The translations under genes and the position numbers were made by a program. From an uncultured virus (IMG/VR IMGVR_UViG_3300005965_000003) (lineage: Duplodnaviria > Heunggongvirae > Uroviricota > Caudoviricetes): a stretch of DNA of 64,000 bases. The notes below the pieces were generated by a model, which saw only the letters and a program-made list of their open reading frames with translations, had not been told where the DNA came from and did no database searches. The number at the start of each line of letters is the position of its first letter. Position 1 is the first letter of the stretch. Shown here piece by piece: positions 26,295-55,719 of the stretch. The stretch lies in IMG/VR virus record IMGVR_UViG_3300005965_000003. One strand, written 5' to 3'.

Positions 26295-26955
26295 ATGCCA
26301 AGAGAAAAAACCAAGGGGCATTGTATACTGTGCGGGAACCGCACAGATATAATCTATAAATCCAAGAAGGCTCCGTATGTCCCCCTGTGTTTTATGTGCC
26401 ACAGGCACGCAAACACGAATCGGCACCAGTTTACTCGTTTCTTCTATGAGAATAATGACCTGCTCAGACAGATAGATACGGTGGTCGTAAACGAAAGTTT
26501 GTTTCTGGACAAAGCGGATGTCATGGACGATCAGCATTGGTGCAAAGAATTGATTGTAAACGGGAGCCTTTTTATTGAGAATAATGCCTGGCTGAAAAGA
26601 TTACCCAAAAAAATTTCTACCACCGTTGATTTCAAGGTCTTTAATTGCTCAGGACTTATGGAAATGCCTGAAGCAATAAGCACGTCAAAAGTATTGACCA
26701 TATGGGATTGCCCGTCAATTACTGACCCGTATGACTGCAGCATGGCTGCTGAATTTATATACTTCCGGGATTGCAAAAACCTTACGAGACTACCTAAAAA
26801 TCTCCACGCTCAATACATCGATATCCACGGATGCCCAAATTTATCCTACATCCCCCCCTCATATCAACGCGGAAATAGGGTGTGAGATAAAACAGATAGA
26901 TAATATACCAGCAGAAAAACTACCCCTGTACCCCTGTACCTCAATAACTTTATAG
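26295..26955 (+). pseudogene. CxxC + LRR-like protein, frameshifted near a C7 run
   Basis: LKRLPKKI, LMEMPEAI, LTRLPKNL repeats; family tail (IDNIPAEKLPLY) lies in another frame after TCCCCCCCT at ~26851. Confidence 0.6.
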
Positions 26956-27013
26956 GGGATGCTAAAAAGTACCTGTTGGAGAAATTACGTAACCGGAAAA
27001 CAACAGCCTGAAT

Positions 27014-27732
27014 ATGAAAAACGGGTACATAAATATCACATTAAATCGTATCAAAGACTCTGGAGAACTCTCCCCCGCCTGCCACTTTTGCGGGGATAGT
27101 GACGAGATCCTGAACCATGGTATTTGCCCCCAGTGCCGGAAGCATACAGCAATCAGCATGTCTAAGCTTAAAGATATGTACAATAAAGGCCTGGGGCCCA
27201 TATTCAGACACGTAAAAGCTATGACGGTAACCGACTCCCTCTACCTGGTCCAGACTATTGTCCCAAATGAACCCATAGTCTGGCCCCATACTCTCCATGT
27301 AATGGGAGAGCTATACTTGGAGGGGAATGGAGCTGTACTGAACCTACCTAAAAAATATGGGTGGCAAAGAGTGTGAAACTATATAACGATGCCGATATCA
27401 ATAATATGCCAGAAGAAATAACCGCCCAAACGGTAATAATCAAAAAACCCTTTATACAAGACTATTTTGATGTGACTATAAACGCCGTAGCACTCTCTAT
27501 AAATGCGGAAAAATTAAATAGCATCTACTGGGGTAATATCCACGTATCTGACCTGATTGAGCTGACCAACTCTAAACACATTACCTCACTGCCGGAAAAC
27601 TTTGAAGGAACGCTCAATGTGTCTCCAGAAGTGGTCAAAACAATACCCAGGCATAAACTACCCCTCTACCTGAACTACCTCTGCGGAGAAGCCAAAGAAG
27701 CCCTTTTAAAAAGACTCAAAGGCATATCATGA
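27014..27732 (+). pseudogene. CxxC + LRR-like protein split by a frameshift near an A6 run
   Basis: ORFs 27014..27376 and 27361..27732 join if one A is added at ~27350 (LPKKIWVAKSV); tail IPRHKLPLY..KRLKG. Confidence 0.55.
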
Positions 27733-28073
27733 ACGAACAGCAAATCCTTGAAGATTACGATAACTGGCTCAAACAATATCACGCAAAAAACGACAGAAAT
27801 AACCAGCGCATTCTCAAAGCCATAAAAGCCGTAAAAGGACAAGAATACCACGATTCCCTGGTGGAAATGCTTGAAGAGAATGAACAACAAGGTGAAATGG
27901 AAATCACCCACCACCCCGAAGGTAAATATCAGGATGAGGATGACTACGGACCTATTAAAGGATGCTGGGTAGACCAGCATATAAACGGAGGATATACAGG
28001 GGATGAATACGCTGGATACGTGTATCTCGAACTCAAACCCAGTAAATACCTAAAGTACTATTATGCTATGTGA
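27729..28073 (+). CDS. hypothetical protein
   Basis: 114-aa ORF; WVDQ..G..GD.YAG. Confidence 0.7.
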   Translation: MNEQQILEDYDNWLKQYHAKNDRNNQRILKAIKAVKGQEYHDSLVEMLEENEQQGEMEITHHPEGKYQDEDDYGPIKGCWVDQHINGGYTGDEYAGYVYLELKPSKYLKYYYAM

Positions 28074-28226
28074 TAATGTCCAAATTATAAAGAAATGCTC
28101 CGTCTGTGACGGGTACGGGGATGTGCCCTCCCTCGAACCCGGAGAAGAACTGGTAGATCAAAAAGGCCCCGCCTGCAAAGGCACCGGCGTAGATCCTCGC
28201 TCAATTAAAAAAGCCGAGAAAGAATC

Positions 28227-28694
28227 ATGACTGGTTTTTTTAAACCCGAAGAAACGACCTTTGATCAATTGGTGATGTATAAAGGTATTAGTCGTAGCTC
28301 ATTCTATAGATTTATGGACTTGTATGAAAAAGATCCTATGATTACTAAGGTACCCGATGGTCTGGGTATGGCCGGAGATATAGACCTCTCAGGACGAAAC
28401 TTTACCCATTACCCCCACGATAAACTCACAGTCCTCGGTAACCTCTCCCTGACTAGCTGTTTGTATCTGGAAAAATTGCCTAAATATCTCTATGTCACAG
28501 AAAATCTGTATCTTAATGATTGCCCAAGCCTCTTTAGCCTGCCTCCCACAATAACCGTCAAAGGCGTACTTTTTTGCGATGCTCAACTCATCGAAGCTAT
28601 ACCCAACAAAGACCTGCCCCTCTATGTGAACTATAAATTCAAACCCGATAGCTTACAGCAACTATACTATAAACGCCTCAAGGAGCAAAAATGA
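28227..28694 (+). CDS. LRR-like repeat protein
   Basis: ITKVPDGL, LTVLGNLSL, LEKLPKYL, LFSLPPTITVKG; tail IPNKDLPLY..KRLK. Confidence 0.75.
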   Translation: MTGFFKPEETTFDQLVMYKGISRSSFYRFMDLYEKDPMITKVPDGLGMAGDIDLSGRNFTHYPHDKLTVLGNLSLTSCLYLEKLPKYLYVTENLYLNDCPSLFSLPPTITVKGVLFCDAQLIEAIPNKDLPLYVNYKFKPDSLQQLYYKRLKEQK

Positions 28695-29158
28695 GTGACA
28701 ATCTCGAAATGAAAATCACCCTGCTGGAAAACAGAATCAGAAAACTCGAAGAAAAATTATATGGAGACGACCCCGGTACAACCATCTCTACCTATGCCAC
28801 CCAATTACTCATGAGAATCTATCTCTGCCCCGTTTTCGACTACGAGAAAAAATGGGTAGACCTCGTGAACCATAAACTCGTTAAACCTTACCAGAGAGTA
28901 CTCGACCTCACAAGCGATAAAGAAGCCTCCACCCAGGAACTCTTTAAATGCTATGCCACAGAATGCATACGCTACCTGAAAAATACCGCAGAAGATACCA
29001 TACTGAAAGAGGCCGCTGAAAAGAAAGAAAACCCCACTCAGCATCTGACTAAAGACCTCTTTAAAGCCTCTATAGACCGGTCTGAAAAAAATATCGAGAT
29101 CTTGGTAGCCAATATCAGCCTCGGGTATCTGCCCCTCAACCTACCCGATATATTCTAA
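28691..29158 (+). CDS. hypothetical protein
   Basis: AAGGAG RBS, 155 aa. Confidence 0.7.
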   Translation: MSDNLEMKITLLENRIRKLEEKLYGDDPGTTISTYATQLLMRIYLCPVFDYEKKWVDLVNHKLVKPYQRVLDLTSDKEASTQELFKCYATECIRYLKNTAEDTILKEAAEKKENPTQHLTKDLFKASIDRSEKNIEILVANISLGYLPLNLPDIF

Positions 29159-29321
29159 CTATAACATTATCTCTTCCACTGAATTCTATGGGATCCTACA
29201 GTCACTATATAGAGGAGATATACAGAATGTAGACTACCTGTGCGTAACCTCTAGATCCTCAGATGATGGCCACGTAGACCTCTCAGTAACAAACCCCGCA
29301 GGCTCCTTTGCTAATCTGCCC

Positions 29322-29609
29322 ATGGATCACCTGAGAATTATAGGAAACCTCCTCTATACAGATCATAAAAATCTCACCCGACTCCCAAAATACCTCGAAG
29401 TCACAGGATACCTGCTTATAGAAAATTCCCCCAAACTTATGTGTATCCCACCAACTATTAAAGTACATGGTAATATATGGTGCGATCCACAAATTATTAC
29501 CAATATACCCGAAACACAATTACCACTCTATATGAACTTTAACTTCGGAGCTAGTGTAATGCGAAAAATCTACCTTAATAGATTGAGAGGCGCTAAATGT
29601 CTAATCTAA
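29322..29609 (+). CDS. LRR-like repeat protein; frame open upstream to ~29165
   Basis: LRIIGNL, LTRLPKYLEVTG, IPPTIKVHG; tail IPETQLPLY..RLRG. Confidence 0.7.
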   Translation: MDHLRIIGNLLYTDHKNLTRLPKYLEVTGYLLIENSPKLMCIPPTIKVHGNIWCDPQIITNIPETQLPLYMNFNFGASVMRKIYLNRLRGAKCLI

Positions 29610-29968
29610 TAGAAATCGCCCTGCTGAAAAGAATAGAACGAAGACTCGCTAACATAGAAGCTATCCTCACGGAACAAGCTCCAACAAAAAATCAAGAGGA
29701 TTCCCCTAAATTACCCTCCTATCCCGAATATATCAGGATAGGAAAGGATCCCGGGGGTGTGTGCCTCAGGTATGAACACGATAACCACTACCATAGAGAC
29801 GCAGGAAACTGGACCGTGTACGTTAAACAAGTATATGATAGATTCTTCATAGATATGGCATTCGATCCACATCTTAATCATCTACACGGTGAAGAAGTAT
29901 TCCCAGTCTCTAAAGAAGAATGGAAAGAAAGTAATAAAGGATACGTGTATAATTCCTTTCTCACATAA
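29597..29968 (+). CDS. hypothetical protein
   Basis: GAGG RBS, 123 aa. Confidence 0.65.
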   Translation: MSNLIEIALLKRIERRLANIEAILTEQAPTKNQEDSPKLPSYPEYIRIGKDPGGVCLRYEHDNHYHRDAGNWTVYVKQVYDRFFIDMAFDPHLNHLHGEEVFPVSKEEWKESNKGYVYNSFLT

Positions 29969-30004
29969 TACCCTTCCCCCATATCGCATTTTTACCCCAG
30001 ACAT

Positions 30005-30039
30005 AAAAAGGACCTTTAGATACCTAAGGGTCCCTTTTT
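30005..30039 (+). terminator. intrinsic terminator
   Basis: AAAAAGGACCTTTAG/CTAAGGGTCCCTTTTT hairpin with T-tract. Confidence 0.65.
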
Positions 30040-30075
30040 GCTTTTTACCCCTCCTTACAAATATTACCCCGGCAT
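30038..30075 (+). repeat. 38-bp direct repeat, copy 1 (copy 2 at 32077-32114)
   Basis: TTGCTTTTTACCCCTCCTTACAAATATTA(C/A)CCCGGCAT, one mismatch. Confidence 0.95.
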
Positions 30076-30177
30076 CATATCCCTGATACAGTCACTAAAT
30101 ACCCCCAAAAAATATCCTATAGTGCTTGAATATACAATTTTAAAAAAGTATATTATGATAAACACGGAGAAGAATCT

Positions 30178-30966
30178 ATGATAGTAAGTCAGTATCAAAG
30201 GGCTATAAAGAAGCAGAAAGAGGCAGAAAATGCCATAAATGAAGACATGTACGCCAGTGCCTATTATTCCTCATATGATGCTATAATGCATTGCCTGAAT
30301 CATATACTCATCGCTAATGGCAAAAAAATCTCTGAAAATAAAGATTCAATACTGGAAAACAACGAACAAACCTGGAAAAATATATTAAATACCGGAGTAT
30401 TTCCCCAGGCCTACGAGAAAGTAGCTAAAGAATATTATTGCTACCAAAATGACGTAAACCGCATAGGAGGATGCTGGGCAGATACCTTTTATGAAGAAAA
30501 AAATACTATAATAGAACTAGTTAATATATCCCGTAAATGCATAGAAGAAAATAAAGATACAAAGAAAAGAACACACGGATCAGTAAAAGTGATCCAGAGA
30601 ACCTCAGTTTTTCCTATAGAAGAAATTCTGGATATTATACTCTCTGATATTGAGTCTTTAGTAATCGATGGCAATCTAGTAAACCTTAATAAAGACCAAC
30701 ATAGCAAAGATAGATATAGATGTTTTAAAGAAAACGGAACCGTATGTAAAAAATGTGGGAAAAAAGCTCAATACTTCGCGCTGGAATTAGTGGAAAGTAA
30801 GTCCTACAATGGATGGACCCTGGGCCTCTATGGTACACATAATGATGAAGAAATCTATTTTACTAAAGACCATATAATAGCAAAGAGCCTGGGAGGACCA
30901 GACTCTTTGGAAAACTATCAAACTTTTTGCTGGAAATGTAACAGCCTCAAAGGGAATCGTCACTAA
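30178..30966 (+). CDS. HEPN-like N-terminus fused to HNH endonuclease
   Basis: YASAYYSSYDAIMHCL; CKKCG..TKDHIIAKSLGGPDSLENYQTFCWKCNSLKG. Confidence 0.75.
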   Translation: MIVSQYQRAIKKQKEAENAINEDMYASAYYSSYDAIMHCLNHILIANGKKISENKDSILENNEQTWKNILNTGVFPQAYEKVAKEYYCYQNDVNRIGGCWADTFYEEKNTIIELVNISRKCIEENKDTKKRTHGSVKVIQRTSVFPIEEILDIILSDIESLVIDGNLVNLNKDQHSKDRYRCFKENGTVCKKCGKKAQYFALELVESKSYNGWTLGLYGTHNDEEIYFTKDHIIAKSLGGPDSLENYQTFCWKCNSLKGNRH

Positions 30967-32008
30967 GAATCTGCGCAAACTTCCTTAAATAATACGATAC
31001 ACTAGCCTTCTTAGTAATTGCTGATGGTAACTTACCTATTACGTAAGGACCATGAGATGTCTCCCCAGAATTTACCTGATAACCATGCTTCTTAAGATAT
31101 TCCATCCTAAGATCATTAATCTTCTTTACCGCTTCCTCACCCTTTTTTGATTGCTTGTTCTGAGACGTCTTTGCTAATTGTTCGTAATCCTCAAAACTCA
31201 TATGGGGAGCTATAACCTTATGACTCACCGCCCGATACCTGTCAGCACAACAACTCGCTATAAATATTAAAGGCACCTTCTTTTCCACCGCCTTCTTTAA
31301 AGTACCATCCGTAATACCACCACAAGCATGCTTCATGTATATAGCATCCGGTATCTCACCCGTTTTATCTTTTCCTAAATCATTCCAATCATTTAACTTC
31401 TCTTCCCAACCAGGACCTAACTCCTTTATAGTACCATCATCCAAATTCTCACTATTAAAAAAACTCCATTGATAGTTCTTCGCACGGTTAAGACCTAATT
31501 GCTTATTCTTTTGATCAGCTAATGAAACCGATTTCTCCTGAAACTCTAATCCCGTCCAATCTAAATCTGGAGATACTGCCTGCTCATGACCTAAACCCGA
31601 TCCAGGAGATAATACCTTGCTGCTAGGCTTTAATCCCCCCTTCTCCTTTAATATCTTAGTAAACTCAGAATGACCACGTACAGCCTTCTCCGCCTGCCTG
31701 CGTGCCTCCTCATCAACTGTACGTGAAAAATTTATCTTCCTGCCCCTTTTTTCCTCCTGTTCCTTACGAGATCTTATTATGTCATTCTTATAAAGAGGTA
31801 TCAATTTCTCTAAATACCTCTCGGGATCCTTAGCATCCTCAGGTGTAAATGCTCCCTCAGGTATAGTATCACTCCGCGTAGGATTCGTAGATATCGTACG
31901 AGAATGCTCATTCGAAGCCGTTACCTCATCATAATCTACCGTAACTCTCACCTCAAAAGGTGACCAACAACTATCATAACTGGAATACCCTTCTAAATCA
32001 GGCATCAT
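30947..32008 (-). CDS. class I SAM-dependent methyltransferase-like protein
   Basis: VLSPGSGLGH, GLE, KHACGGITD, ASCC. Confidence 0.65.
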   Translation of the reverse strand: MMPDLEGYSSYDSCWSPFEVRVTVDYDEVTASNEHSRTISTNPTRSDTIPEGAFTPEDAKDPERYLEKLIPLYKNDIIRSRKEQEEKRGRKINFSRTVDEEARRQAEKAVRGHSEFTKILKEKGGLKPSSKVLSPGSGLGHEQAVSPDLDWTGLEFQEKSVSLADQKNKQLGLNRAKNYQWSFFNSENLDDGTIKELGPGWEEKLNDWNDLGKDKTGEIPDAIYMKHACGGITDGTLKKAVEKKVPLIFIASCCADRYRAVSHKVIAPHMSFEDYEQLAKTSQNKQSKKGEEAVKKINDLRMEYLKKHGYQVNSGETSHGPYVIGKLPSAITKKASVSYYLRKFAQILSDDSL

Positions 32009-32171
32009 TACCCCTTTATTTTATACCAGCCTCCTTATAAAGATATAAACATAACTTGTATTAGAACATTATTAAATTGCTTTTTACCCCTCCTTACAAA
32101 TATTAACCCGGCATAAAAACCTATAATCTTTTAATAAATACTTTATAGTTTAATTAAATCAGGAGCCCACC

Positions 32172-33263
32172 TTGAATGTACATAAAGTCGTATTATCATA
32201 CTTTAAAAGCATAGAAGCTAGAAGTATACCAGCCCTGGAAGACCAGGTAAATATTGCCGCTGATATATTCTCTGAGGCTATGGATAAAGTACCTAACAAG
32301 TTCAAGGAAGATGGGCACGACTTTAAAGAATCCCTAAAAAAATACTTCGATGATGAAGGACTCTATAACTACTTCTATAACACCCTCGAAGAACTGTTCT
32401 ATGATAACCCTAAAAAAGACAAACTATCAATAGACCTACATATAAGCTATGAAAAAAACTACGAAGGCATCAGAGCTGAACAAAAATTAGGCAACACCGT
32501 AGAAATAGTGTTCGGACAAAAATTTTTAGCCGAAATGATAGAAGGATGGTACTACAAAGATGAAAAAAAGAAATTTATCGATGAAATAAAAACAGAAATA
32601 GGACACGAAACCATACACATACAACAACCCGGACTACTCAAAGAAAATGAACGTAAAATCCCCAGAATAGAAGATGAAGTAAATAAACAGCTAGAACCTT
32701 ATAAACCCAAACTTAAAGAATTCACAAAAAATCTAGGCCCCAAAATAAAAGAATATATAAATACAGAAGGTAGAAAAAAATTTCTGGATGGATTTCAGAA
32801 GTATTATACGAAACTTTTAAATGATTCCAAAATAAGAGAAGGAATTGTACCCCCATACCTCAAAGAACTATACCACGGAATCATTAAAACCCTACCACAA
32901 GAACTAGTAATACCTGCCCTAAAACAAAACGCCTATCTAATAGACGATAAAGTAATATCCAAATATAAAGGATACTCTCCCGATAAAGAATGGTACTCCT
33001 ATATCTCTGACCCCAGAGAAATTATGGCTTATGCATACTCTCTCGTATCCAAAGCCCATAAAAAAGGAATGCCTAAAGAAGAACTTATGAAAGCCCTCTC
33101 TAAACCAGATGACTATAAAAAAGAACTGTACCCCCTGGACTTCTACCAGGAATTTAAAAAGTTCGAAGGTGATAAAAATCTATCCGCTCAAGATAAAAAA
33201 AAGATTTGGCAAAAATTCCTAAAACATGTAAGTGGATATATAAACCAAATCTATCCTGAATAA
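32172..33263 (+). CDS. zincin-like metalloprotease, probably late/virion
   Basis: IGHETIHIQQ and Y..DPREIMAYA; late-type motif upstream. Confidence 0.7.
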   Translation: MNVHKVVLSYFKSIEARSIPALEDQVNIAADIFSEAMDKVPNKFKEDGHDFKESLKKYFDDEGLYNYFYNTLEELFYDNPKKDKLSIDLHISYEKNYEGIRAEQKLGNTVEIVFGQKFLAEMIEGWYYKDEKKKFIDEIKTEIGHETIHIQQPGLLKENERKIPRIEDEVNKQLEPYKPKLKEFTKNLGPKIKEYINTEGRKKFLDGFQKYYTKLLNDSKIREGIVPPYLKELYHGIIKTLPQELVIPALKQNAYLIDDKVISKYKGYSPDKEWYSYISDPREIMAYAYSLVSKAHKKGMPKEELMKALSKPDDYKKELYPLDFYQEFKKFEGDKNLSAQDKKKIWQKFLKHVSGYINQIYPE

Positions 33264-33665
33264 CCATCCCGATAAGTATTACATCTCCATAATACCCCCC
33301 TTTAAGGGCTTAATACCTCCCCCCTTTTTTCACCATATCTCCGTATCTCTATATCTATTAAGATGTTAGGTTTGGGAAGGTCTGAGTAGGGTTTAGGTAC
33401 TTGCTGGTTACTTGCTGGGATGCCTGTAGGGTCGGTAAGGTAAGGTAGGGTTTAGGTAGGGTTGGGGGAGTTTAGGTAGCTGTCTGATCAGTTTCTTTCC
33501 CAAAGAACCTGGGCAGAAGGTGGGGGGGTGTTAGGTAGCTGCAGAAACATCGAATTTTACTGGGGCTTCGAAAATTGAAATCGCAAAATACCGAAAATTT
33601 GTGTGTACCTCAAGCGGGCCTGCGGGCCTCTGAGGCCTTTTTCCTATATTATAGTGTCTTTACAA

Positions 33666-33935
33666 ATTCCTGAAAAATGGAAAAAAAATTTCAGCTGAAA
33701 ATATTTGATTCTTGCCTATATGTATTAGTTAGGTGAGATAGATATTTCCACTATATTTTATTCCTGAAAAATGGAAAAAAAGATTTTAGTTGAAAATATC
33801 CGATTCTTGCCTATATGTATTAGTTAGGTGAGATAGATAGGTGAGATAGATATTTCCACTATATTTTATTCCTGAAAAATGGAAAAAAAGATTTTAGTTG
33901 AAAATATCCGATTCTTGCCTATATGTATTAGTTAG
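33666..33935 (+). repeat. three tandem AT-rich ~94-108-bp repeats, third partial
   Basis: Units start ATTCCTGAAAAATGGAAAA at 33666, 33760, 33868; share GATTCTTGCCTATATGTATTAGTTAG. Confidence 0.95.
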
Positions 33936-34055
33936 ATAGCAAAAGGCTCTGCGTGACCGGCAGAGCCTTTCTTAGTTGAGAGCAGCCGAGGGTGGCCGAA
34001 GGGATCGGCGGGCTGCCAGTAATGGAGACAACTTAACACAGAGAGGAGGCGCACC

Positions 34056-34331
34056 ATGAGCGCAACAAAAATTCTCCGAACAATCGCAGCCGACCCCCGC
34101 CACCTCACCCTCGATGATTTCGCGGGGTTTATCCCCGCAGATGCGGTCGTGTACAGCTTGCCTACGGGCAAGCTGTTTAAATGGGTCAGCCGGACAAAGT
34201 CCGGCTGGGGCTGGCTCCCACACGGGGAGCGGGCGGACTACGCCCGCGTATCCGTAGATGAGGAGGGGGTTGACCCCTCCTCAATCTGTTGCACCCGCGC
34301 AATGGGGCCATTGTCCCCATTGCGACGCTAA
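34056..34331 (+). CDS. hypothetical protein, first gene of the GC-rich array
   Basis: AGGAGG RBS. Confidence 0.7.
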   Translation: MSATKILRTIAADPRHLTLDDFAGFIPADAVVYSLPTGKLFKWVSRTKSGWGWLPHGERADYARVSVDEEGVDPSSICCTRAMGPLSPLRR

Positions 34332-34363
34332 GAGGGGACCCTCCGCCTAGGAGGGTCTCTCTT

Positions 34364-34478
34364 GACTCCGAACAGCACCGGAGTCTAAACATAGTGCTGG
34401 CAGCCATGCCCTAACGGGCATGACCGTCGCGGGCTGTACGATGCCCGCCATTGCCCCACGTACGGGGAAAAAAGATAA
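34364..34478 (+). ncRNA. structured element family 1 (H-type pseudoknot + hairpins); copies at 36178-36290 and, pseudoknot only, 38151-38184
   Basis: Compensatory changes between copies; conserved CTAAACATA linker. Confidence 0.7.
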
Positions 34479-34533
34479 TATCCAAAACCGCCCCCGCCTA
34501 AACGGGCGGGGGCAAAACAGAAAGGAGTATACC

Positions 34534-35433
34534 ATGCGTATACTCATCTCAAACAATGCCGACAACCTGACAGCCGCCCTCAGCGGCACAAACTCCGCCA
34601 CGGTCGAAGCCGAATACGGCGAGACCGTGGTGCAGGGGTCAATACTGACCCTTGCCCACCACGGGGACCGGGCGTCCCGCCCGTGCCCCTGTAGTCTGCC
34701 AAACATGGCAGACCTCGGGGTGGAGACCATTGGGGTGTCGCACTTCGATTTGGACACCCTTGGGGGTGTCATGGCAATTCTCGGGCGCAAGCCCGAGGTA
34801 GAGTATGACTGGTTGGGGGACTCATACCCCCACCAATATGACTCGTTTTGGGACACCGCCGCAGCGGTGGACCTCAATGGCGTCCATAAGCTCTCTGAGC
34901 TTATGGCGAATGGTTCCGACATGCTCGACATGTCCACGACCGAAGTTGTGGAAGCCCTCAACGCCTTCTGGGCATGGTCGGAGTCGAACCGACTGTTCCC
35001 CGAGAGGGACGGTTCCGTGACATCGGTCACGGAATTTTTCGAGACCGCCATGGAGGTGGTCGAAAAAATCCTGCAGGGGGACGAAACCCTCCTGCAGGCG
35101 GGGCGGGACTGGGCCACCGCCAAAGCCCAGCTCGACAAGGACAGCCTTGTCGAGAGCATGAACGGAGTCCAGCTTCGTTCTTCGGACAGCTTCGTGAACC
35201 ATCTCTATGGCACGGACACCCGTGCCATAGTCGGGTATTCCACGAAGTTTAAGAGCATCACGGTGTCCGTGCCGGATGCTATTGACGGGTTTTCCTGCGG
35301 GGAATTCCTGCAGGGTATCTTCGGCCCCGAGGCCGGAGGACACGCAGGGATCGGGGGATCCCCCCGGGGTATCGAGTATACGCTCGATGACGCCCGGGAA
35401 GTAGCGGTTAAGCTGGCGGAAACGCTGGCCTAA
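34534..35433 (+). CDS. DHH/MYG1-like phosphoesterase
   Basis: TLAHHG, SHFDLDTLGG, C-terminal AGGHAGIGGSPR; AAGGAG RBS. Confidence 0.6.
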   Translation: MRILISNNADNLTAALSGTNSATVEAEYGETVVQGSILTLAHHGDRASRPCPCSLPNMADLGVETIGVSHFDLDTLGGVMAILGRKPEVEYDWLGDSYPHQYDSFWDTAAAVDLNGVHKLSELMANGSDMLDMSTTEVVEALNAFWAWSESNRLFPERDGSVTSVTEFFETAMEVVEKILQGDETLLQAGRDWATAKAQLDKDSLVESMNGVQLRSSDSFVNHLYGTDTRAIVGYSTKFKSITVSVPDAIDGFSCGEFLQGIFGPEAGGHAGIGGSPRGIEYTLDDAREVAVKLAETLA

Positions 35434-35437
35434 TCTT

Positions 35438-35501
35438 TCCTGAGGGGCACCCGCCTAAACAGGCGGGTGTTAAAGGACAGACCTGGTCCCAAGTCCGGGT
35501 C
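35438..35501 (+). ncRNA. twister ribozyme, circularly permuted (P5-type)
   Basis: CCT-GAGGG-P1(GCACCCGCC/GGCGGGTGT)-TAA-AGG-AC-P4(GACCTGG-TCCCAAGT-CCGGGTC); both pseudoknots can form. Confidence 0.8.
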
Positions 35502-35507
35502 ACCTTT

Positions 35508-35572
35508 TGCTTGGCGGCTGACTACTGCCAGGCATTTTTTATAGATAGCCGGACTGGTCAACCGGCAATAAC
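35508..35572 (+). ncRNA. structured element family 2 (hairpin-T6-hairpin, complementary loops); copy at 35838-35903
   Basis: Covarying 10-bp stems; loop TGAC(T/C)A complementary to loop TGGTCA. Confidence 0.65.
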
Positions 35573-35586
35573 AGAAAAGGGGTTAT

Positions 35587-37151
35587 ATGTTGAGTAAATC
35601 TAATGCTCGCCGCCTGGCGGGCTCCCTGGGCGAGGATAAACTCGCCAACAACCCCGGGCATACCTGCACGGTGTGCGGGGTTGTTCTTTCCGAGGGTGAG
35701 GGAGTTGACTCCCTCACCCTCACGGGTGAGCCTCTGTGCGAGGCTCATCTCTGGGATGCAATTAATTAGCATCCTGCCGTCAGCCCATAACACGGGGGTA
35801 CGCCATCACCCCGGCAACAGAAGGCAATGTTTTCTACTGCCTGACGGCATGACCACCGTCAGGCATTTTTTATAGACTGTCGGCCTGGTCAACCGGCATT
35901 AACCCAATGGAATGGGGGTTATTATGAAAAAAGCCGCGACCGCCGCTGAACGGCGGTCAAAAAAGCGGGCCGCAGAAGCTCGCCGTAAAGCAATCTGGCG
36001 TGGGGTTTGCCTTACCCACAAGGCGGGCCGCGAGCTCGCCTTCTTCGGTATTATTACCGCTCTCGGGCTGAAGCTGCCCGAAATTGGTGCCAGCGCCTGG
36101 CACCACCTGACCGCCTTTGCGGTCAGCACTTGGATGCAGGTGCTGACCGTTTTTGGTCTCGCCTAAACGGCGGGACCGCCCCGAACGGTACCGGGGCCTA
36201 AACATAGTACCGGCAGTCATGGTTTATAGCCATGGCCGTCGCGGGCTGTACGATGCCCGTCTATGCCCCACGTACGGGGAAAACAGATAACACACTCTAA
36301 ACAGAGAGGACCACCCATGAACCAGCTAATTTTGGACGCCCTTAAACAATCACTCGCCCACAAAGAGGCGAATGACTGTGACTGTGAGAGTCTATACGGT
36401 GAGACCCAACTACAACTCCGAGAAGGGGTTGTTTATGCTGTTGTTAAGACGCACAGCATAAACCCGATGACTGACGAGCTCCCCGAGCCCGCCGAAGGTG
36501 TTAAGCGGTTCAGGGAGTACATTAACTCGGGCCACGCATTCTATTATGATTGCGTGCCACTCGCTTCATAAACCGGATGCCCATAACACGGGGGCATTAT
36601 AATACCGTGTCCACGAATAGGGACGAAACAAAACGGGTTCGTGCTGATGTGTCCCGCCCGATAGATAACATCCTAAACAGAGGAGCCTAAACATGGTTAC
36701 CAAAACACTTCCCGGTACCCTGGTTCTCAACATCCTTGAATCGGAATTCGTGGTCACGCACCACGACATCCCGCAGTTCGCGGGGGCCACTCACAACAAG
36801 TGCTTCGAGTGGCTCTTGAAGAATCAGTCGTGCTCGGTCAAAGAAGCGACCGAACATCAGGGATGGGCAATCAAGACCCGTGACGAGATCGTTGAGGATC
36901 CCGACCCCGAAACGATAGTCCGGATCGGGCGGTATGGGAAGTTCGGCTCCCGGAAAGCCATCCGGGAATTGTGTCGGGTTTCCGATACCATGCAGAAGCA
37001 GGAACGGGTGTCCGGCTTCATTGCCGGGCACAAGGTAGAGGGCTACTTCACACGGTCGGAAATTACCGACCTGTGCAAGCAGGATCCTCCCTACGAGCCT
37101 TCTCCTGAAGAGAAGGCTGCGTTCAAGGATTGGGTTGATAACCATTCATAA
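35587..37151 (+). other. four small hypothetical genes (35587, 35912, 36317, 36693), each separated by a structured spacer
   Basis: RBS-bearing + ORFs; CxxC/CxxH in 35587. Confidence 0.65.
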
Positions 37152-39663: not shown

Positions 39664-42600
39664 ATGAGCATAGTAACAGGTGTGATTCAGGCTAACAACG
39701 TCAGCTCTGAAGCCGTGATCAATGAGTTCATGAACAATGGAGTTGACCTCGGGTTTGAGGAGTACCTTGCCGAGAACGGTGAGGATGCTGCGGATGACTA
39801 CATGGACAACGGTGATAGCACCTACCTCTGCGGCTTCTACAAGAAAGAGGAAGGGCCGGATGCTGGTAAGTATGTCCCTGACCCTGACGCCCCATGCTCA
39901 GCCATCTTCAGCGCAGACCGGAACGTGATACAGGTTGTCCGCTCAAAATGGGTAGTCAGGGATGCACGATGGTGTTCCCCCTGCTATCCGGGACAGGCCG
40001 ATCTCGACTCTACTGACGGAGGCATCGAGGCATACACACTCCCCGAGGATTGGTTTGATATAGAGCATCCTCCGGTCAACCAGCCGGAATACATAGGATA
40101 AGTTGAATCTCTCGAATTCAGAAAGGACTAAACCATGTACAAAGAACTTGCATTCCCGAACGTGAAACGCTTGAGCGGGCTCTTTAGCTCGCTCAAGTAT
40201 TATGAGCCCGGCAAACGTGACCCTCACAGCCACAAGTACACCAAGATACACCCAACCGGACCAGAGATCTCGACCTTCTGTCAGATCACCGGGCCGGGTA
40301 TCGAAGGGTACCACACAGCCGACGCAGTCCCTAACAAGGTACTCGATAAGTACATCGCCAAGAACATGCTGGACATCGAAGGCGGTGTCTTCTTCGAGAT
40401 CGTTTGCCGTAAGGATGGTTCGGCTCTGGTGATCGTGAAGTACAATTCGATCATCGGAGATCGGTGGCTGGCAGAGATCCAGACCGATATGATTCCCGGT
40501 CTGGCTGAAGAAGAAGAAAAACACATAGCCGAGATGGCTGAACTAAAATCCTAAAGAAAGGTGGTCTCTCATGACTGACACACAGACACAGGTCAAGTCC
40601 AAAGTCGTCCTCTATAAAGGGGGCGGCTATGATGGGTGTATCTGGGAAGTGAACTGGTTTATGTTTGATGCCCAAGGCAACTGGCATAACTTGTACAGCT
40701 CAGGATACTCCGGCTTCAAGGATGACCAGGAGCACAAAGCCCGGGAGCTGTACAAGGAATGGGACACCGAAGTCCCCTCCGAAGAGTATGACTTCACGTA
40801 CGAAGGAGTCATGGAGGTGATAGATTTGGATAGAGATGAGTCCATCCTCTCGTTCTCGAAAGAGTACGAAACGGTGGTCACTCTGGCAGTCATCCGCACA
40901 GTCAACGACACCCTCGTTGAACAGGGTGAGAACGCCAAGATGTTCTTCAAATGTGACCATTGTGAGAAGCATATCTATCCCCTGTCCGAAGTCGAGGACG
41001 GGCATGTCGAGGGGCTCTCCGGGAACGGTGGGGTTGGATTCAGGGGTGACGAACTCTACTGTGATGAGTGTCACTTAAGTCTCTCCTGCGGGTACTGCGG
41101 GGAGTTTGACAGCGATACCCACAAGCAGGGCGGGTACTGCTCCTATCACTTTGAGACGGCTCTCAAGCGATGGCTGGAGAGCTTTGGGAGTGAGGGAATA
41201 CAGCACCTGTATGTCACAAACCTTAACGAGGTCGATATTGAGAACTATGTCGAGTGGGGTTTCTGCTTCGAGGACTGGATCAATACCGACCCTTCCGATG
41301 GTGAAGACATTCTCTGGATCATGAAGACAGACGAGCTGGATCGGTGGGGGATACATGAAGCTCGGTGGTACATCATCGAGGCTTCGTCAGAGAACCAAGC
41401 TCTCGACATCCTCACCGAGTGGACCGAGCGGAAACACTTTCAGATTGATATCTGGAAAGCTCGGGATTACATGGTGAAGAACATCGAAGAGCTGGAAAGG
41501 CATGTACACCATTAACCAAGGTGCTGTGGCTCCCTACGGGGAGCCGGGGTAGTATACAAACAGGATGAAAGCACTGAGACTACCCATTGAATCCTGTACT
41601 AACCACAACCAAAAGGAGGTTCTCATGAACCCGGATACCGAAACGACCGAACTGCTTTCGAAGGCTGACTATGAGAACGCTGTTCAGTCTCAGAATGCCT
41701 GCAACCTTTCAGGCGTTGTCTATTCACTGGCTTCCATCATGCCCAAGATCTGGAACGAAGCTCGGGCAAGAGAAAAGGGCACCAAGTGGGTCAACGAGCA
41801 CCCCATCTGTGCCTTGTTCGCTGAACAGATTTCCCACCTCTCGGGATGTGGGATAACGAACAACGATAGATACGGCACGCACATTAATTACTGTGAAGCG
41901 ATGGCTCAGGAGAACCGAGTCAAAGCTGCACAGTTTCTCCCGGAATACGCACCCCTTCAGAAGGAGGCTGGGATTCTGGCAGCACGGTAGTTCCCGTACG
42001 GCGATTGACTACCCTTTCGATCTGGTTAAGGAGGTTTGATATGATGACCAAGATGTTGTTCGCGCTGCACTTGATGGCAGCGAAGAGTGCTTTCTACACC
42101 AATCCCTATATGTACTGTGCCCCGGGAGGGGTCGACATCAACGAAGTCAACCGGGCAAAGAAAAAGAACCGCAGGAACAAGTCTCAGAAACGCAAAGCAA
42201 AAAGATAGGAGGGTTTAATGGTTGGTGATATCGTGATGACAGTCATACAGGGGCTTTATCCGGGTGGAATGTCCGCCTTCGAGGAAGAGGGCGGCTCTGT
42301 ATTCTACATCCCGGATGAAGAAATCCTGATCTATCACCCTTCCCTTGACCCCAAGGCAAAGGCGAAGATACTCAATTCCCTGAAGGGTCTGAACATAACC
42401 ATATCGTTTGTGTCCGCTGGAAACTTTGAGGACTTCCATATGGATCAGATCAAAGACTTCCAGGAGTATCTGATCATGAAGTTGATGGATCTGAAACTCA
42501 GTGCTGCAACGGTTCTGGTTTCCCGAGCCAGTATCTTCATCGGCATCCCGCACTACAAGAGTACTCAGATGGCTGTCAAACGTCTGAAGGATTTCCTCAC

Positions 42601-45600
42601 AACGTTTGAAGGTGTCGTGCGGGGTCACATCAAATGTCGGGATCGGATTGTCCGGTTCGGCAAGCCGGGACCAAAGACACGAGTCAGAAAGCACGCTCAG
42701 TCAAAGATCCAACCCGAGTATGGGAGACCGGATCGAGAACATACTATCACTGAGGATGACGTACTGAATCTCAAGATAGCTTTAGAGTCATCCAAATCAT
42801 TCGAAGAATTCCTCAACAACATATAAGGAGGTACTGATGAACGTGAACGTCACAAAAGATCAGCTCGCTCAGGCAATCGCTACCATGAAGCAGGCATACC
42901 AGTCCGAGAGCTTCAAGCAGCTCATGGATCTGGTCAAGAACAACCCTGAACTGAGTGCGTTCGTTGACGCGGACAGCATTAAGACGGTCACAGAGGTTGT
43001 TCATACTGCCCCTACGGTCGAGGTGGTCACCCCTGAGCGTAAGCCTCGGGTGGAGCTGAACAATGCCCCCAGCGGGCAGCACAGGCGGCTCAAGAAGCAG
43101 GTCAACAAGCTCCCTGTGAAGGAGCGGGAGCTGCTTCCTGAAGAGCGTGACCAGATTATCCAGTACATGAACAAGACACAGGATCTGATGCCCCACGACT
43201 CCGGTGAGGGTGATGGGATCTGTCAGCAGATGTGTGACAAGTTCAATGCTGAGAGTCCTCGCCTCAATCGGGTGTGGCCTTATCAGGTGAGCGGGTACTA
43301 CTCTCACCTGTGTCGGATGGCCATGAAGCCCAAAGATAACCGGGACGATTGGTTTGTGAGAGCCGTCGCCAAAGGATCGCTGACCGGCAATGTCCGTCCC
43401 TACTTCGGGGTCAATCTCCAGCGTCGGGTAGCCTCGAACTGGAGTAAGGCCCGCCGTGAGGAGTGGGAGCGCAAACAGGATCACGCTCAGATGCTGTCGG
43501 AAAGAATGGAAAAGGGAGTCCTTTAAGGGCTCCCTTCACTTTAACAAAGGAGTTTGTATGCCTCAGACAGTGAAGGAACTGCCGTGGTTCGATGAGTATG
43601 GTTGGGTACAACGTGACATCCCCCAGCCCGCAGTCGAAGCCTGCTATCACTCAGGTCAGTGTCAGGGTGACGTTGAGCACTGGCGTAAGGTGCTCAACTT
43701 TCAGGTGCCTCGACAGAAAGCCATCGACTATCTCAAGGAATACGGTGCCTGGGAAGTCGAAGAGATGAATGCATGGTCGGACGAAGAGCTTGCCGAGAAG
43801 GTGCTGTGGTTAGCCTGCGGAGACATCTCCGAACAGGGTGAATGGTTAGGACTCATACACTAAGGAGGACTCGTGGTACTGGATAAAGCCGTGGAAGTTG
43901 CCGAGGCTATCGGTAAGAAGGTTCGGGTCAGGCAGAAGGTCGTGAGCACGGGAGTGTTCACTGCCATCAATGCCGCCGAAGAGATTGTCGAGGAGGGCGG
44001 ATTCAAACCGGGCAGGCTCTGCGGTGATGCCCCTGTCGCAATCGCTCCGGGTGACTTCAACTATGTCGCCAAGTGGGCGAACATCAGCAGGGATGAATGG
44101 CCCAAGCTCAAGGGAGTCATTGTTTCGGAGGACTTCCGCAACGGTGATGCCTATATCTGTTACTTCGACTGAAGGAGATCTCATGGGTGATGGCACTGAC
44201 TATCAAATAGAAGAAGCATACGACTACACCGAGGATGAACTGTGGGGTTCTGGTTATGTCGTAAGCCTGATGGGAAGGTACGACCAAAACAAATCCGCTA
44301 AGATCGGTGACGTAATCAGCTGCCCGGTATGCGACAAACGATTTGTTAAGCGTACCCGCGATCATACCTTCTGCTCCAATGGTCGGAGAAAGAAGGGTGG
44401 TAACTGCAAAGACCGATACTGGAACACTGTCGATGATGAAAGGAGAGAACGTGCGAAGGCTTATAAAAAAGTATAAGGGCCACGAGATTGTTGAAGAAGA
44501 GGGCTTAATCATTGTCCACAAAGACGACAGTGATTATATAGTCGCTTTAGATGACTCTAAATCGAAAGGCCCCAAGTTTATTAACCTGAGCAATAACACT
44601 GTCGAGGCCGCTAAGGAATACATCGACTGGAAGGAGAAAGCATGTCAAAAAGATACTACACCCGTAAGCAACTCCTGAATAAGGAATGCACACATAGTGA
44701 GTACTATGCTCCCTTCATCTCCGAACGTATGGTGTGTATCGTCCTGAACCGTATTGGAAAGGAAAGGATATTAGCCAGCACAGACCCTAACTTTAATGAT
44801 ATTCCTCTAAAGGTCTGGGATAACCTGCCTTATCTGAATGGGGTGGGTGAGGTTTATAAAGAGAAGACAGGAGACTGGATGACACAGAGCTCCTGGGTGT
44901 GTATGTATAAAGAAGCCGCTCACAATATCAAACAAAAGGAGGAAGCATGCCTGAGATCTCCAAGGACATGATCGAGCACATCCGCGCCGTCATAGAGTAT
45001 GTCGAACCCAACGAACAGGAACACTACGAGTCCATGGTTGAGGAAGACCCTGACTACAAGCAAGAGAACCATGTCTACTACCACATACAAAGAGTCTCCC
45101 AATGGCTCGAACAGCAGGAGGAGTCATGAAGCATTCAATCCGATACATTCAGGTCCGGGTCGAGGTGGTCCACGATGAAGGCGTGGACCCCGAAGATGTC
45201 CTGAGTGAATGTGACTACAAGTTCGAGTCCACAAGCCCCGGTCAACAGATCCGGGACACAGAGATCCAAGCCTATTCAGAATCACCCTGGGAGTAGCCAT
45301 GAATAACTCACAGAAGTATGAGAACTCAATGATGTATTGGCACAACAACCCTCCCCCACCTTTTAACCCCGAGGCTGACCCTAAAGCAGGGGAACGCTAC
45401 GAGATGGTCACAAAGAGCATGGTAGCTGACAACTACTATGCTAACCATACCCGTGAGGAATGCAAACAGGAATGGCGGAGACGCTATGAACTTCTAAAGG
45501 AGGAACAGGCATGAAACGTTTCGTACAAGCCCTTAAAAACCCCTCTCAGTTCGGATCGGGCACCCGGACTACCCCCGCGTTTGACAGCTTCTACCGCAAG

Positions 45601-47144: not shown

Positions 47145-47665
47145 CCTGAAGGGGGTAACCAACCCCCCTCTACCTTGATACTCGCTAAATTCCCAATCAA
47201 TCTTCTCACTCAACAACAAAGGAGCCTATCATGGCTAAGAAAAAACTCAAGCTCAACTTTCGCACAATCGCTTTCCTCTCCGTCTCAACTCTCGGTGTCG
47301 TCGGCTGGTCCGGTCCTGACTATCAACCCCTTATCTCCGCCCGAGACTCGGGGTCACGAGTCATCACGCGAACGAAGGATAAGATCGAGGCTCTAAGGGA
47401 CTCAGCTTCCGAATGGGTAGAGGCTCTAAGGGGTCACGAGTCATCACGCCGATAGAGCCTCAGGCTCTAACACGAGTCATCACGTAGATCAGGGAGGCTC
47501 TAAGGAGTCTCCCCTTTTTATTCCAAGGCTCTACCACATATCAGGGAGGCTCTATGTGGAAACAGGCTCTAATGCAGGGATATAGTATAGCTCTTGGCTT
47601 AGCGGTACTTGCCCTGCTTGTTGACCAGGCTCTAAGAATTGTACATAAATCCGTAAAAAGGCTCT

Positions 47666-48256
47666 ATGAAAGAAACTCGAAAGGAGAACTACCCAATGAA
47701 TAACACGGTAAAAATTATCCTCACCCAAGACGGTCCCATGTCCTTGAGTGAAGATGCCCACGGATCTCTTCGCCCCGAAGTCCCCACCCGGCTTTCAGCC
47801 GAGGGGTGGGACGAACTGAATACGTTGCTTGAGAACTGTTCAGTGGAATCAGCCTGGCGCTCCGCAGATGGGTGGGAGCTTATGAGTAATCGAGGCTCTA
47901 CCATCAGTATCTATGACCTACTCAAGCCTCTGGAAGGCTCTAACGAGGATCTGGTCATGGCTTTGTGTGATGCCTTCGATACACACCTGAGTGAATACGG
48001 GTTCCAGGCTGTCGAAGCCGCCTACGATGCCAATGTCCTCTGCTGGAGAACTACCTCTCAGGTAAAACTTGAAGCACAAGTGCAGGAAATTGCGGTGAGC
48101 AAAGACTGCTACGGGTGCGGGGCTGAGCTTGAGGATTGGTATGATGTGAGTGAGGCTCTAACAGACCCTACAACGGGGTACGTAGTGCCTGAGGCTCTAT
48201 GCGAAGAATGTCTCAATACACAGGAGGAGAAAATAAGAAAGAGAACTGAAACCTAA
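47666..48256 (+). CDS. hypothetical protein with C-terminal CxxC pairs
   Basis: CYGC..CEEC. Confidence 0.65.
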   Translation: MKETRKENYPMNNTVKIILTQDGPMSLSEDAHGSLRPEVPTRLSAEGWDELNTLLENCSVESAWRSADGWELMSNRGSTISIYDLLKPLEGSNEDLVMALCDAFDTHLSEYGFQAVEAAYDANVLCWRTTSQVKLEAQVQEIAVSKDCYGCGAELEDWYDVSEALTDPTTGYVVPEALCEECLNTQEEKIRKRTET

Positions 48257-48281
48257 GGCTCTAAAACCCAGGTAAGCATCT

Positions 48282-48746
48282 ATGAGTCGCCGAAAACCCA
48301 AACGACAACCCAATATCCTTATATCCAACCCTCCGGTATCCTCTCAGGCAGCTTACCACCTTTTGGTGTGTAAGCTGGCCTCTGAGGCCGGTGAGAGACC
48401 ATTCCGCTGGTGGGAATGGGTGGCATTCAGAGCAAACTACCTAACAAATCTTGAGAGGCTCTACGGTATGCTGTGGTGTGAATACTGTGGAAAGCATCCT
48501 CTACAGATAAATGGTGAACTGTACTCTAACCAGTGTCTGGCGACGCTGGATCACATCCACGCTGTAGCACATGGAGGCTCTATCTATGATCCGAAAAATT
48601 TAGCGGTAGCCTGTCATGCCTGCAATCAAGAAAAGAATGATAGTAGGGGCTTTCACCCGAGGCTCTACCCCTACGAAAAAGAAACTATAGCATTACTCGA
48701 AAGGAGTATGTATGTCGAATCTGTCACCAAAGCTTACCCGAGGTAA
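48282..48746 (+). CDS. HNH endonuclease
   Basis: CEYCG..ATLDHIHAVAHGG..NLAVACHACNQEK. Confidence 0.9.
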   Translation: MSRRKPKRQPNILISNPPVSSQAAYHLLVCKLASEAGERPFRWWEWVAFRANYLTNLERLYGMLWCEYCGKHPLQINGELYSNQCLATLDHIHAVAHGGSIYDPKNLAVACHACNQEKNDSRGFHPRLYPYEKETIALLERSMYVESVTKAYPR

Positions 48747-49386
48747 CGAGAAGATCAAGGAGGCTCTTGTCTGGTCGATCCCCTCTGGTAAGACCTGCCC
48801 TGGAGCTACAAAGCTCTGTAGCGTGATCTGTTATGCCAGACAGTCGGAGATACAGTATCACAATGTTGTCCCACCGAGTCGCTGGCATAATCTGAGGCTC
48901 ACCAAACGGGCTGACTTTGCCGAGATCATGATCAAGGCTCTAAAGAGACGGCGCTACCGGGCGTTGCGGATACATGAGAGTGGTGACTTCTACTCTCAGG
49001 TGTACCTCAACAAGTGGGTAGGGATCATCAAGGCTCTACCGGAATGGATCTTTTGGGCTTACACGAAGTCTCACTCGCTGGACTTCTCCGAGGCTCTAAA
49101 GCTCCCCAACCTCAACCTGAGGTATTCGGTGGATGCCACCACAAAGAAGTATCCCAAACAGGATATGCCGCTGGCTCACCTGTCCATGCATCAGCCTGAC
49201 GGTGCCTTCGAGTGTCCCGGCACCGGAGCTGCTGGCGGGATCAAGTGTGCCAGAGATTGCAAGGTTTGTATGGAAACCTCTAAATCAATCTGGTTTCACC
49301 CCCATGGGACGCACCGAAAGAAGATTGAACGCTTCGAGAGTATCACTCCAGAGCACGAGTCATCACGTATTCTGGCTGGGGCTTAA
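48712..49386 (+). CDS. phage Gp88-like Fe-S/radical-SAM-related protein
   Basis: TCPGAT..C...CYA, RIHESGDFYS, WAYTKS, C-terminal Cys cluster and HG. Confidence 0.8.
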   Translation: MSNLSPKLTRGNEKIKEALVWSIPSGKTCPGATKLCSVICYARQSEIQYHNVVPPSRWHNLRLTKRADFAEIMIKALKRRRYRALRIHESGDFYSQVYLNKWVGIIKALPEWIFWAYTKSHSLDFSEALKLPNLNLRYSVDATTKKYPKQDMPLAHLSMHQPDGAFECPGTGAAGGIKCARDCKVCMETSKSIWFHPHGTHRKKIERFESITPEHESSRILAGA

Positions 49387-49411
49387 CGGCTCCAGCCTCT
49401 AAGGAGGCTCT

Positions 49412-54641: not shown

Positions 54642-54921
54642 GACACAAGTCATCACGTATTATCAAGGCTCTAACACAAACAAGGAGACTCTATGAACAA
54701 GGCTCTAACCTATAAGACTGAAGACTTCCGAGTCATCACCGATACAGACATGACCCACTGCCGCTCCACCCGCTGAGGAAGTGATCCAATTGATCATCAC
54801 CAAACTCAAACGTGGAGAGTATCAGTAAGTATACGAGGCTCTATCCTTAGAGCCTCTATCCCTCCTCCCACCACCACGGGGAGGGTCTAACCAAGGATCT
54901 AACACCCAACAAGGAGGCTCT

Positions 54922-55719
54922 ATGAGCACCCGTGGTAATGTCACTATCAAAACAAAACATGGGACTTTCATGTATGAAATCCCCTCCTCAGCAGATGAGA
55001 TGGACAACATTAAGCTGCTTGAGAACTGGTCTGGAGATATGCCCGAACTCCAGGAACTCCATATGAATCCCGGTCACGTAGGAAATCCCTCCATCTTCCT
55101 CGATGTCGATGCCATCAAAGGTACCCTGACCATCAGGAAAGCTCAATCCTTTTGGGTCAATGCCCCTGAGGATTGGAGAGAACGTGGGTATATCTGCTAC
55201 CAGAGCGATAAAGACTATAAGCAGTGGGGATACCACTCATGGAGAAGAGGTAATGTAATCATGAGACATACCTATCCCGAGGCTCTAACAACTCCCGGAG
55301 CCGCCCCCGACTGGCTCTATACCAAAGAGGACATGAAGGAACTGGCAAGTATCTTCCAAGGCTCTAACGGGTACAGCCAAGCCGCCTACCTCATGAAGAA
55401 AGTCTCAGCCGTAAAAGAACTGGTACCGGTCTTGTTTGGACCCTATACCAAAGAGGAAATGAAGGAACTGGCAAGTATCTCCCAAGGCTATAACGGGTAC
55501 AGCCAAGGCTCTAACGGGTACAGCCAAGCCGCCTACCTCATGAAGAAAGAATACAAGTACGACCCTCAGAAGATTTATCTGTGGCTCTCAGCCGTAAAAG
55601 AACTGGTACCGGTCTTGTTTGGACCCTATGAAGAACTCCCTACCATGCTCAACTCATGGGAACCTATCAAATCAATCGCCATCTGGCGGATGAAAATGAA
55701 TGAAAGGAAAGCAGTATAA
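54922..55719 (+). CDS. hypothetical protein with recent internal duplication
   Basis: MKELASI.QG.NGYSQ and SAVKELVPVLFGPY each occur twice; tail EELPTML..AIWRMK. Confidence 0.75.
   Translation: MSTRGNVTIKTKHGTFMYEIPSSADEMDNIKLLENWSGDMPELQELHMNPGHVGNPSIFLDVDAIKGTLTIRKAQSFWVNAPEDWRERGYICYQSDKDYKQWGYHSWRRGNVIMRHTYPEALTTPGAAPDWLYTKEDMKELASIFQGSNGYSQAAYLMKKVSAVKELVPVLFGPYTKEEMKELASISQGYNGYSQGSNGYSQAAYLMKKEYKYDPQKIYLWLSAVKELVPVLFGPYEELPTMLNSWEPIKSIAIWRMKMNERKAV

Follow-up and report, generated by a model that had tools for sequence, protein, structure and literature searches.

An apparent strand-skew switch at 33.3 kb of a large uncultured phage genome coincides with a candidate control region at the edge of a gene block

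We analyzed a 64,000-nucleotide stretch of DNA from an uncultured phage (hereafter, the window) and found that the region at 33.3 kb is not supported as a replication origin defined by strand skew. Instead, we tentatively favor, at somewhat less than an even probability, the reading that positions 33264-34055 (site 1) of this large phage genome are a non-coding control region, located at the upstream border of a 25-kb block of early-type genes. The apparent switch from C to G excess at this position is best explained by a C-rich intergenic tail, a G-rich repeat array and the loss of a strand-specific C excess lying side by side. By composition, it is a site 26 kb beyond site 1, at ~59 kb (site 2), that is origin-like; it has the sole origin-like strand switch and adjoins a gene for RNase HI.

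Phage-type genes in the window encode polynucleotide kinase/phosphatase, RNA ligase, thymidylate kinase, HNH endonucleases, a GP88-family protein and RNase HI, and no tRNA genes were found in it. The closest phage match of the kinase is in a 484-kb uncultured phage (40% identity), and the two largest proteins (920 and 2066 aa) had no match in the phage collection. The viral contig collection contained no relative of the 363-aa protein encoded next to site 1, or of the 337-aa, radical SAM or 2066-aa proteins. A protein identical to one encoded here was found on a contig of 134,268 bp, which points to a large phage genome, and the public runs containing this DNA are hypersaline-lake and microbial-mat metagenomes. 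A row of small paralogous proteins with leucine-rich-repeat-like LPK/LPP motifs, without Pfam or PHROG match, is encoded at 26295-29609 (plus strand).

The initial annotation held that the plus strand carries a C excess left of site 1 regardless of gene direction, and that it switches to G excess at 33.3 kb. Third-codon-position skew, computed cumulatively from 90 curated genes, bears out the former: on the plus strand, third-position GC skew is -0.21 at 8.7-22.8 kb, where genes point to the minus strand, and -0.33 at 23.2-33.3 kb, where they lie on the plus strand, and the lone minus-strand gene of the latter stretch (30947-32008) has a value of +0.73 on its own coding strand, equal to -0.73 on the plus strand. 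The switch itself stands only in the raw data. The raw cumulative G-C curve reaches its global minimum for the whole 64-kb window at 33355, inside the 12-mer ATCTATTAAGAT (33353-33364, plus strand), and has a second local minimum at 59030, but third-position skew moves from -0.33 to about -0.04 (34-45 kb) without changing sign, and the first genes to the right of site 1 still have values of -0.22 and -0.11. Skew then runs through -0.06 at 45.5-53 kb and -0.25 at 53-59 kb to +0.47, with the sign flipping at 59.0-59.6 kb, where third-position AT skew also goes from +0.11 to -0.34. The cumulative third-position curve, which had been proposed as a check, shows no inflection at 33.3 kb and has its minimum at 58968, that is, at site 2. 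Site 1 therefore fails the third-position skew test, since it has a break in slope alone, and of the two origin-like sites that had been proposed, only site 2 behaves like an origin at neutral positions.

What changes at site 1 is base composition. All genes but one at 22.6-64 kb lie on the plus strand, so gene direction is constant across the site. The 89 nt of the C-rich tail (33264-33352) contain 32 C and 6 G, and the 186 nt of the G-rich array (33365-33550) contain 73 G and 21 C. The upturn of the raw curve at 33355 results from this array, the loss of C excess in the block and the G-rich first codon positions of plus-strand genes. At window scale, GC content jumps from 38% to 60% at site 1 and then declines to 43% by 57 kb; at a resolution of 100 nt, it is 24-29% at 33.7-33.9 kb and 58% by 34.0 kb. 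Likewise, GC3 is 0.41 left of site 1 and then 0.65, 0.60, 0.53 and 0.51, a gradual fall that passes 59 kb without a step. Site 1 thus forms a sharp, one-sided compositional edge, and site 2 is a switch in strand asymmetry at unchanged composition.

Site 1 is an intergenic region of 792 bp between the gene for the 363-aa protein (32172-33263, plus strand) and the first gene of the block. This protein has an HExxH motif (HETIH), read by eye, and no family match. The C-rich tail follows the stop codon of the gene and ends in three 8-nt repeats of the CCATATCT kind (33333-33356, plus strand); comparable C-rich stretches occur in the intergenic DNA upstream of the genes at 30178 and 32172, and such a tail is typical of the left-hand intergenic regions of this phage. 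The 12-mer is followed by the G-rich array of short repeats (33365-33550, plus strand), which has nine KTAGGK motifs, two kinds of 11-nt tandem unit (TACTTGCTGGT and AGGTAGGGTTT, x1.9 each) and two copies of TTAGGTAGCTG. The motif [GT]TAGG[GT] occurs nine times in the 200 bp from 33351, compared with a mean of 0.13 per 200 bp, making this the densest cluster in the 64-kb window. G-rich TTAGG/TAGGG repeats thus do lie directly after the 12-mer, as had been noted, but the quadruplex potential ascribed to them is weak: 33365-33550 has only two-tetrad G motifs, of which the plus strand of the window has 77, and no canonical G3+ motif with loops of up to 12 nt. With their 11-nt phasing, the nine KTAGGK repeats could be binding sites of one sequence-specific protein.

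Downstream of the array, a terminator-like GC hairpin with a T run (33613-33645, plus strand; stem 33624-33638, tail TTTTCC) would end transcription arriving from the left. It is followed by three tandem AT-rich repeats of ~100 bp (33631-33935), spaced by 95 and 108 nt and 61%, 100% and 99% identical to the reference copy, each with promoter-like hexamers. Sigma-70-like consensus matches in these repeats lie on the minus strand only, one per unit, and a plus-strand TTGAAA-16-TATATG in the same stretch was read by eye only. The consensus, which may not be that of the host, is not enriched in the block (15 matches found at 40-60 kb vs. 23.5 expected), so our promoter calls rest on position and repetition, and the three repeats may carry the promoters of the block. 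An 8-bp-stem hairpin, GGCTCTGC...GCAGAGCC (33941-33970, plus strand), lies at the local GC jump from ~29% to 58%, and a Shine-Dalgarno sequence and the first block gene, at 34056, come after it; in the proposed layout this hairpin would follow the promoters and precede the rise in GC. Searches of Rfam returned no match at site 1 even at E≤1, and the site has no excess of secondary structure over shuffled sequences (z = 0.09). DnaA boxes form no cluster, with six matches in the window vs. 4.9 expected and none at either site, and no initiator, helicase or primase was found among the scanned ORFs beside site 1. No DNA match for 32-36 kb was found in the phage collection, and the viral contig collection contained no exact match to the core of site 1.

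Relatives of the 363-aa protein were found on only two metagenome contigs, L001 and L002 (73% identity), which share with the window that gene alone. Downstream of it, these contigs have a C-rich stretch, an array of 12-nt repeats, a conserved GAAAATTTGT...CCTCAA sequence similar to that at site 1, and tandem repeats, in the same order as at site 1. The array of L001 (CTGAACCTGGTC, x2.8) occupies the place of the G-rich array but differs from it in sequence and is rich in C on the same strand, and neither contig contains the 12-mer. Judging from these sequences, conservation thus extends to the layout but not to G-richness or the 12-mer. Moreover, the motif AAATAT(A)TTTGATTCT of the tandem repeats at site 1 recurs in the end repeats of L001 and L002, both of which stop inside tandem repeats. 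Variants that skip segments were found among contigs of the public runs. In run X4, a contig from a relative with ~93% identity lacks 30040-33333 and picks up again at 33334, with 62 nt or more on either side of the joint; it thus keeps the 12-mer core while the adjoining genes differ. Another variant contig has a joint from 34478 to 36292 that deletes exactly the stretch between the two copies of a 60-nt GC-rich element (34419-34478 and 36231-36290, 92% identity); this element lies just upstream of two gene starts and may be a shared 5' leader. A variant contig in run X2 joins 33970 to 35866, ending at the terminator repeat at 35850 (pair 35519/35850). Insertions and deletions in the block are bounded by repeated intergenic cassettes, the feature that defines hyperplastic regions of the promoter-terminator cassette (PeSL) type.

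The block itself (34056-58971, plus strand) comprises ~25 kb of small, GC-rich, one-directional and strain-variable genes, over which GC content decreases (60% to 43%), as does GC3 (0.65 to 0.53). Family matches were obtained for four of the 45 ORFs scanned (radical SAM, GP88, HNH and a weak helix-turn-helix), and none of the 45 encodes an integrase, recombinase or transposase. The proposal that the two sites bracket a distinct region agrees with these data, as 34-59 kb has plus-strand genes throughout and almost none of them belongs to a known family. We infer that the block genes are expressed early. The first sizeable one (34534-35433, plus strand) encodes a 299-aa protein with a predicted DHH/DHHA1 phosphoesterase fold (pLDDT 92.8); a PDB search gave 45 matches (E≤0.001) headed exclusively by DHH/DHHA1 proteins (NrnA/GdpP/PggH-like), and the protein has 550 homologues, some in metagenome-assembled genomes of candidate-phyla-radiation bacteria, with no match in Pfam. 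Such a phosphoesterase would fit an early function in degrading nucleotide signals or nanoRNA. A Twister-P5 ribozyme (52.1 bits vs. a gathering score of 37.6) lies at 35439-35498 (plus strand), 5 nt past the stop of this gene.

The right-hand part of the block is marked by the 8-mer AGGCTCTA, with 50 copies on the plus strand and two on the minus strand, all within 47388-59143 and none elsewhere in the 64-kb window. Every reading frame contains copies, as does intergenic DNA; their consensus is R-AGGCTCTA-[ACT], and some of them make up GGAGGCTCTATG-type ribosome-binding sites accompanied by a start codon. The hairpin that carries the 12-mer at site 2 is followed 38 nt later by the final copy, and none of 84 compared loci was enriched for the 8-mer. 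The word CGAGTCATCACG(TA) has four to seven copies, on the plus strand only, within 47355-56790, and CGCTAAATTCCC has three, at 38891, 47183 and 50992; these two words are possible regulatory elements of the block.

Two hairpins lie at site 2. The first is long (59002-59064; z-score of the region -7.1), rich in C in its 5' arm and in G in its 3' arm, and has the raw local skew minimum at 59030 in its central loop; the second, with a 13-bp stem (59076-59105), carries the 12-mer in its 5' arm (59079-59090), in agreement with the initial annotation. The 26-bp palindrome AAATTCTTCCACAGGTGGAAGAATTT has six intergenic copies across 56714-59248, starting at 56714, 56798, 57035, 57298, 59108 and 59220. 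Near these palindromes, a gene at 58015-58287 encodes a 90-aa protein that weakly matches a helix-turn-helix. To the right, a non-coding G-rich stretch of 535 nt precedes the RNase HI gene (59640-60092, plus strand; PF00075, 1.8e-32), the first gene beyond the site. The 80 RNase H loci that we compared have at most one further gene in common with the window and were therefore not used for synteny.

Exact copies of the 12-mer ATCTATTAAGAT occur in the window at 12387, 33353 and 59079, that is, three times vs. 0.03 expected, and a count of three was reached in 0 of 200 block-wise Markov simulations. The copy at 12387 lies inside a gene. When two intergenic regions of these sizes were shuffled, they shared a word of at least 12 nt in 75 of 1000 trials (7.5%). 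The best local alignment of sites 1 and 2 consists of the 12-mer alone, 22% of 300 shuffles score as high (P = 0.22), and no other similarity of the two sites above chance was found. The proposal that the same protein acts at both is weakened accordingly, drawing as it does on one 12-mer that is missing from L001 and L002 and lacks extended similarity around it. Neither the 12-mer hairpin pattern nor a 24-nt palindrome was found in the genome contig collection, and the literature searched did not contain the 12-mer, AGGCTCTA or its complement as words. The presence of the 12-mer at both skew turns is suggestive, but short of conclusive.

We compared this organization with that of known phages. 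The left end of T7, as checked in its record, has the heptamer array SRL (CCTAAAG, ~12-13 nt spacing), promoters A1, A2 and A3 ~125 nt apart, and then the early genes, a one-directional block led by an anti-defence gene. Here, nine KTAGGK motifs with 11-nt phasing are likewise followed by three repeats 95-108 nt apart and a one-directional block. With respect to the early genes, however, the strand that carries the motif is opposite to that in T7, and whereas T7 is 40 kb with a terminal repeat, the genome here is at least 64 kb, the same protein occurs on the 134,268-bp contig, and a physical end is a conjecture. Searches with the DNA of 32-36 kb and with the large proteins against the phage collection found no homology to T7-group genes or sequence, so the likeness is one of layout only, and it fits a control region as well as a genome end. 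According to two sources (10.1101/866236; PMC5852040), the terminal repeats of T5, SPO1 and XacN1 carry pre-early or host-takeover genes and reach ~2x depth when an assembly collapses them. They resemble the present block in that a long set of small early genes is bounded by complex repeats and palindromes. They differ in that no consensus DnaA boxes occur here and the terminal repeat is putative, and we found no description of a sharp GC jump and GC gradient like the present ones for T5, SPO1 or XacN1. In T4-type hyperplastic regions, small genes are gained and lost between PeSLs (PMC4122927). Similarly, small genes without known family are gained or lost here between repeated intergenic cassettes resembling terminators and promoters; however, T4-type phages have several islands among core genes, whereas this phage has one large block with a single sharp edge and unrelated cassettes. 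Finally, site 1 shares with skew-defined bidirectional origins, as described in PMC7111523, a raw cumulative minimum, a small repeat array and AT-rich DNA nearby; unlike those origins, it lacks the third-position sign change, which is present at site 2 only.

The control-region reading leaves two things unexplained, namely the presence of the 12-mer at both skew minima and a higher sequencing depth right of the site. We determined depth from contig word depths in four runs (X1-X4) of four studies, covering up to 59 kb. In long contig pieces, the right side was deeper in all four, by 1.3-2.5x: X1 rose from 11.3 (27634-33666) to 22.2 (40348-45000), a ratio of 1.96; X2 from 7.2 to 11.5 (1.6); X3 from about 3.5 to about 4.5 (1.3); and X4 from about 4.7 to about 12 (2.5). 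GC bias is unlikely to be the sole cause of this step, because depth does not depend on GC content within either side: in X4, pieces of 39-44% GC have depths of 4.1-5.3 without a trend, and a piece of 51% GC has 11.5. The step can be read either as a terminal repeat collapsed in assembly, which is known to show up as 2x depth (PMC7111523 and PMC5852040), or as a block common to more strains than the left flank. The main rival explanation, which we consider possible, if on balance unlikely, is that the virion DNA has its left physical end at site 1 and that site 2 is the inner boundary of a direct terminal repeat of ~25.7 kb (33.35-59.1 kb) that carries early genes and was collapsed in assembly; the 12-mer and the KTAGGK array would then be recognition sites for an end-making terminase or a nicking enzyme. 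Such an arrangement would account for a depth that is raised in every run and tracks the block, not GC content, and for a GC content that is sharply discontinuous at site 1 and continuous at site 2. It would also suit the T7-like succession of a short-repeat array and three promoter-like repeats, and the palindrome cluster straddling site 2, which has a parallel in T5, whose terminal repeat contains a repeat region at its inner end (10.1101/866236). Repeats of 13-66 kb with early genes that collapse to 2x coverage are on record (PMC5852040 and PMC7111523). However, the depth values come from contigs left of 59 kb; the ratios vary, with X4 exceeding 2; X1 has only 16.4-17.7 at 33.9-38 kb, which requires strain variants; sharing of the block among strains gives the same depth pattern; and the two boundaries have only the 12-mer in common.

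Because a break in slope without a sign change is also expected from a second origin that fires part of the time, we considered site 1 as a secondary origin used in part of the replication rounds, with site 2 as the main one, and judge this improbable. At ColE1 and T4 oriF-type origins, RNase H processes an RNA-DNA hybrid into a primer. Here, rightward transcripts would form such a hybrid over the G-rich non-template strand and the RNase H encoded at 59640 would make the primer; alternatively, the short repeats would be iterons. The raw skew minimum at 33355 is in keeping with this, as are the succession of skew values from -0.33 to -0.04 and to -0.25 near site 2, the pattern expected of converging forks from two origins of unequal use, the helically phased short repeats adjoining an AT-rich stretch (24-29% GC), and the G-rich non-coding DNA to the right of the 12-mers of sites 1 and 2, followed after the second by RNase HI. 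Yet the neutral-site skew keeps its sign, including in the first rightward genes, and its break coincides with a 20-point jump in GC, which is a simpler cause. Neither an initiator, helicase or primase gene nor a cluster of DnaA boxes marks the site, and the G-richness is not conserved in L001. It is less probable still, indeed very much so, that the boundary is an assembly join of two phage genomes through shared tandem repeats, even though GC, GC3, skew and depth all shift at one point, no contig of X1-X4 bridges 33666-33906 among the matches listed, and L001 and L002 also end inside repeats. Both sides co-occur in all four runs at ratios of only 1.3-2.5 and share motifs, which makes a chimera unlikely: the 12-mer lies on both sides (12387, 33353, 59079), TACCCCCC-type tracts occur in the intergenic DNA of both, and AGGCTCTAAC, typical of the right-hand block, is also found in the intergenic region of L001, a relative of the left side. 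Tandem repeats of 100 nt are, moreover, sufficient to break short-read graphs. We give least credence to 34-59 kb being an integrated mobile element with the 12-mer as its duplicated attachment core. Direct 12-nt repeats do lie at 33353 and 59079 and GC content deviates at the left side, but the scanned block ORFs encode no enzyme of integration or transposition, there is no GC step at the right repeat, a third copy of the 12-mer exists at 12387, and no related genome with an empty site and a single 12-mer was found.

The control region that we favor has implications for how such sequences are read. A raw GC-skew minimum in a phage contig can stem from adjoining compositional domains, without an origin, and third-position skew separates such a minimum from a true origin. 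The region also shows where this phage keeps fast-changing, probably anti-defence, genes. In its fullest form, the terminal-repeat explanation would describe the block as the collapsed ~25.7-kb terminal repeat of a large hypersaline phage that holds the whole early/anti-defence set, begins with a T7-like array, falls from 60% to 45% GC inward and has 50 same-strand copies of AGGCTCTA in its inner 12 kb that stop at the boundary, a picture that we regard as doubtful. If it is true, an enzyme that starts at the right DNA end and travels inward would read the AGGCTCTA array, which could offer Chi-like protection from end-dependent nucleases or tell the packaging motor to stop, and the ends would be made at the 12-mer found at each boundary. 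A block that is a terminal repeat would represent a long early-gene repeat in a phage lineage without cultured relatives, with an unusual GC gradient and a dense one-strand motif array open to experiment.
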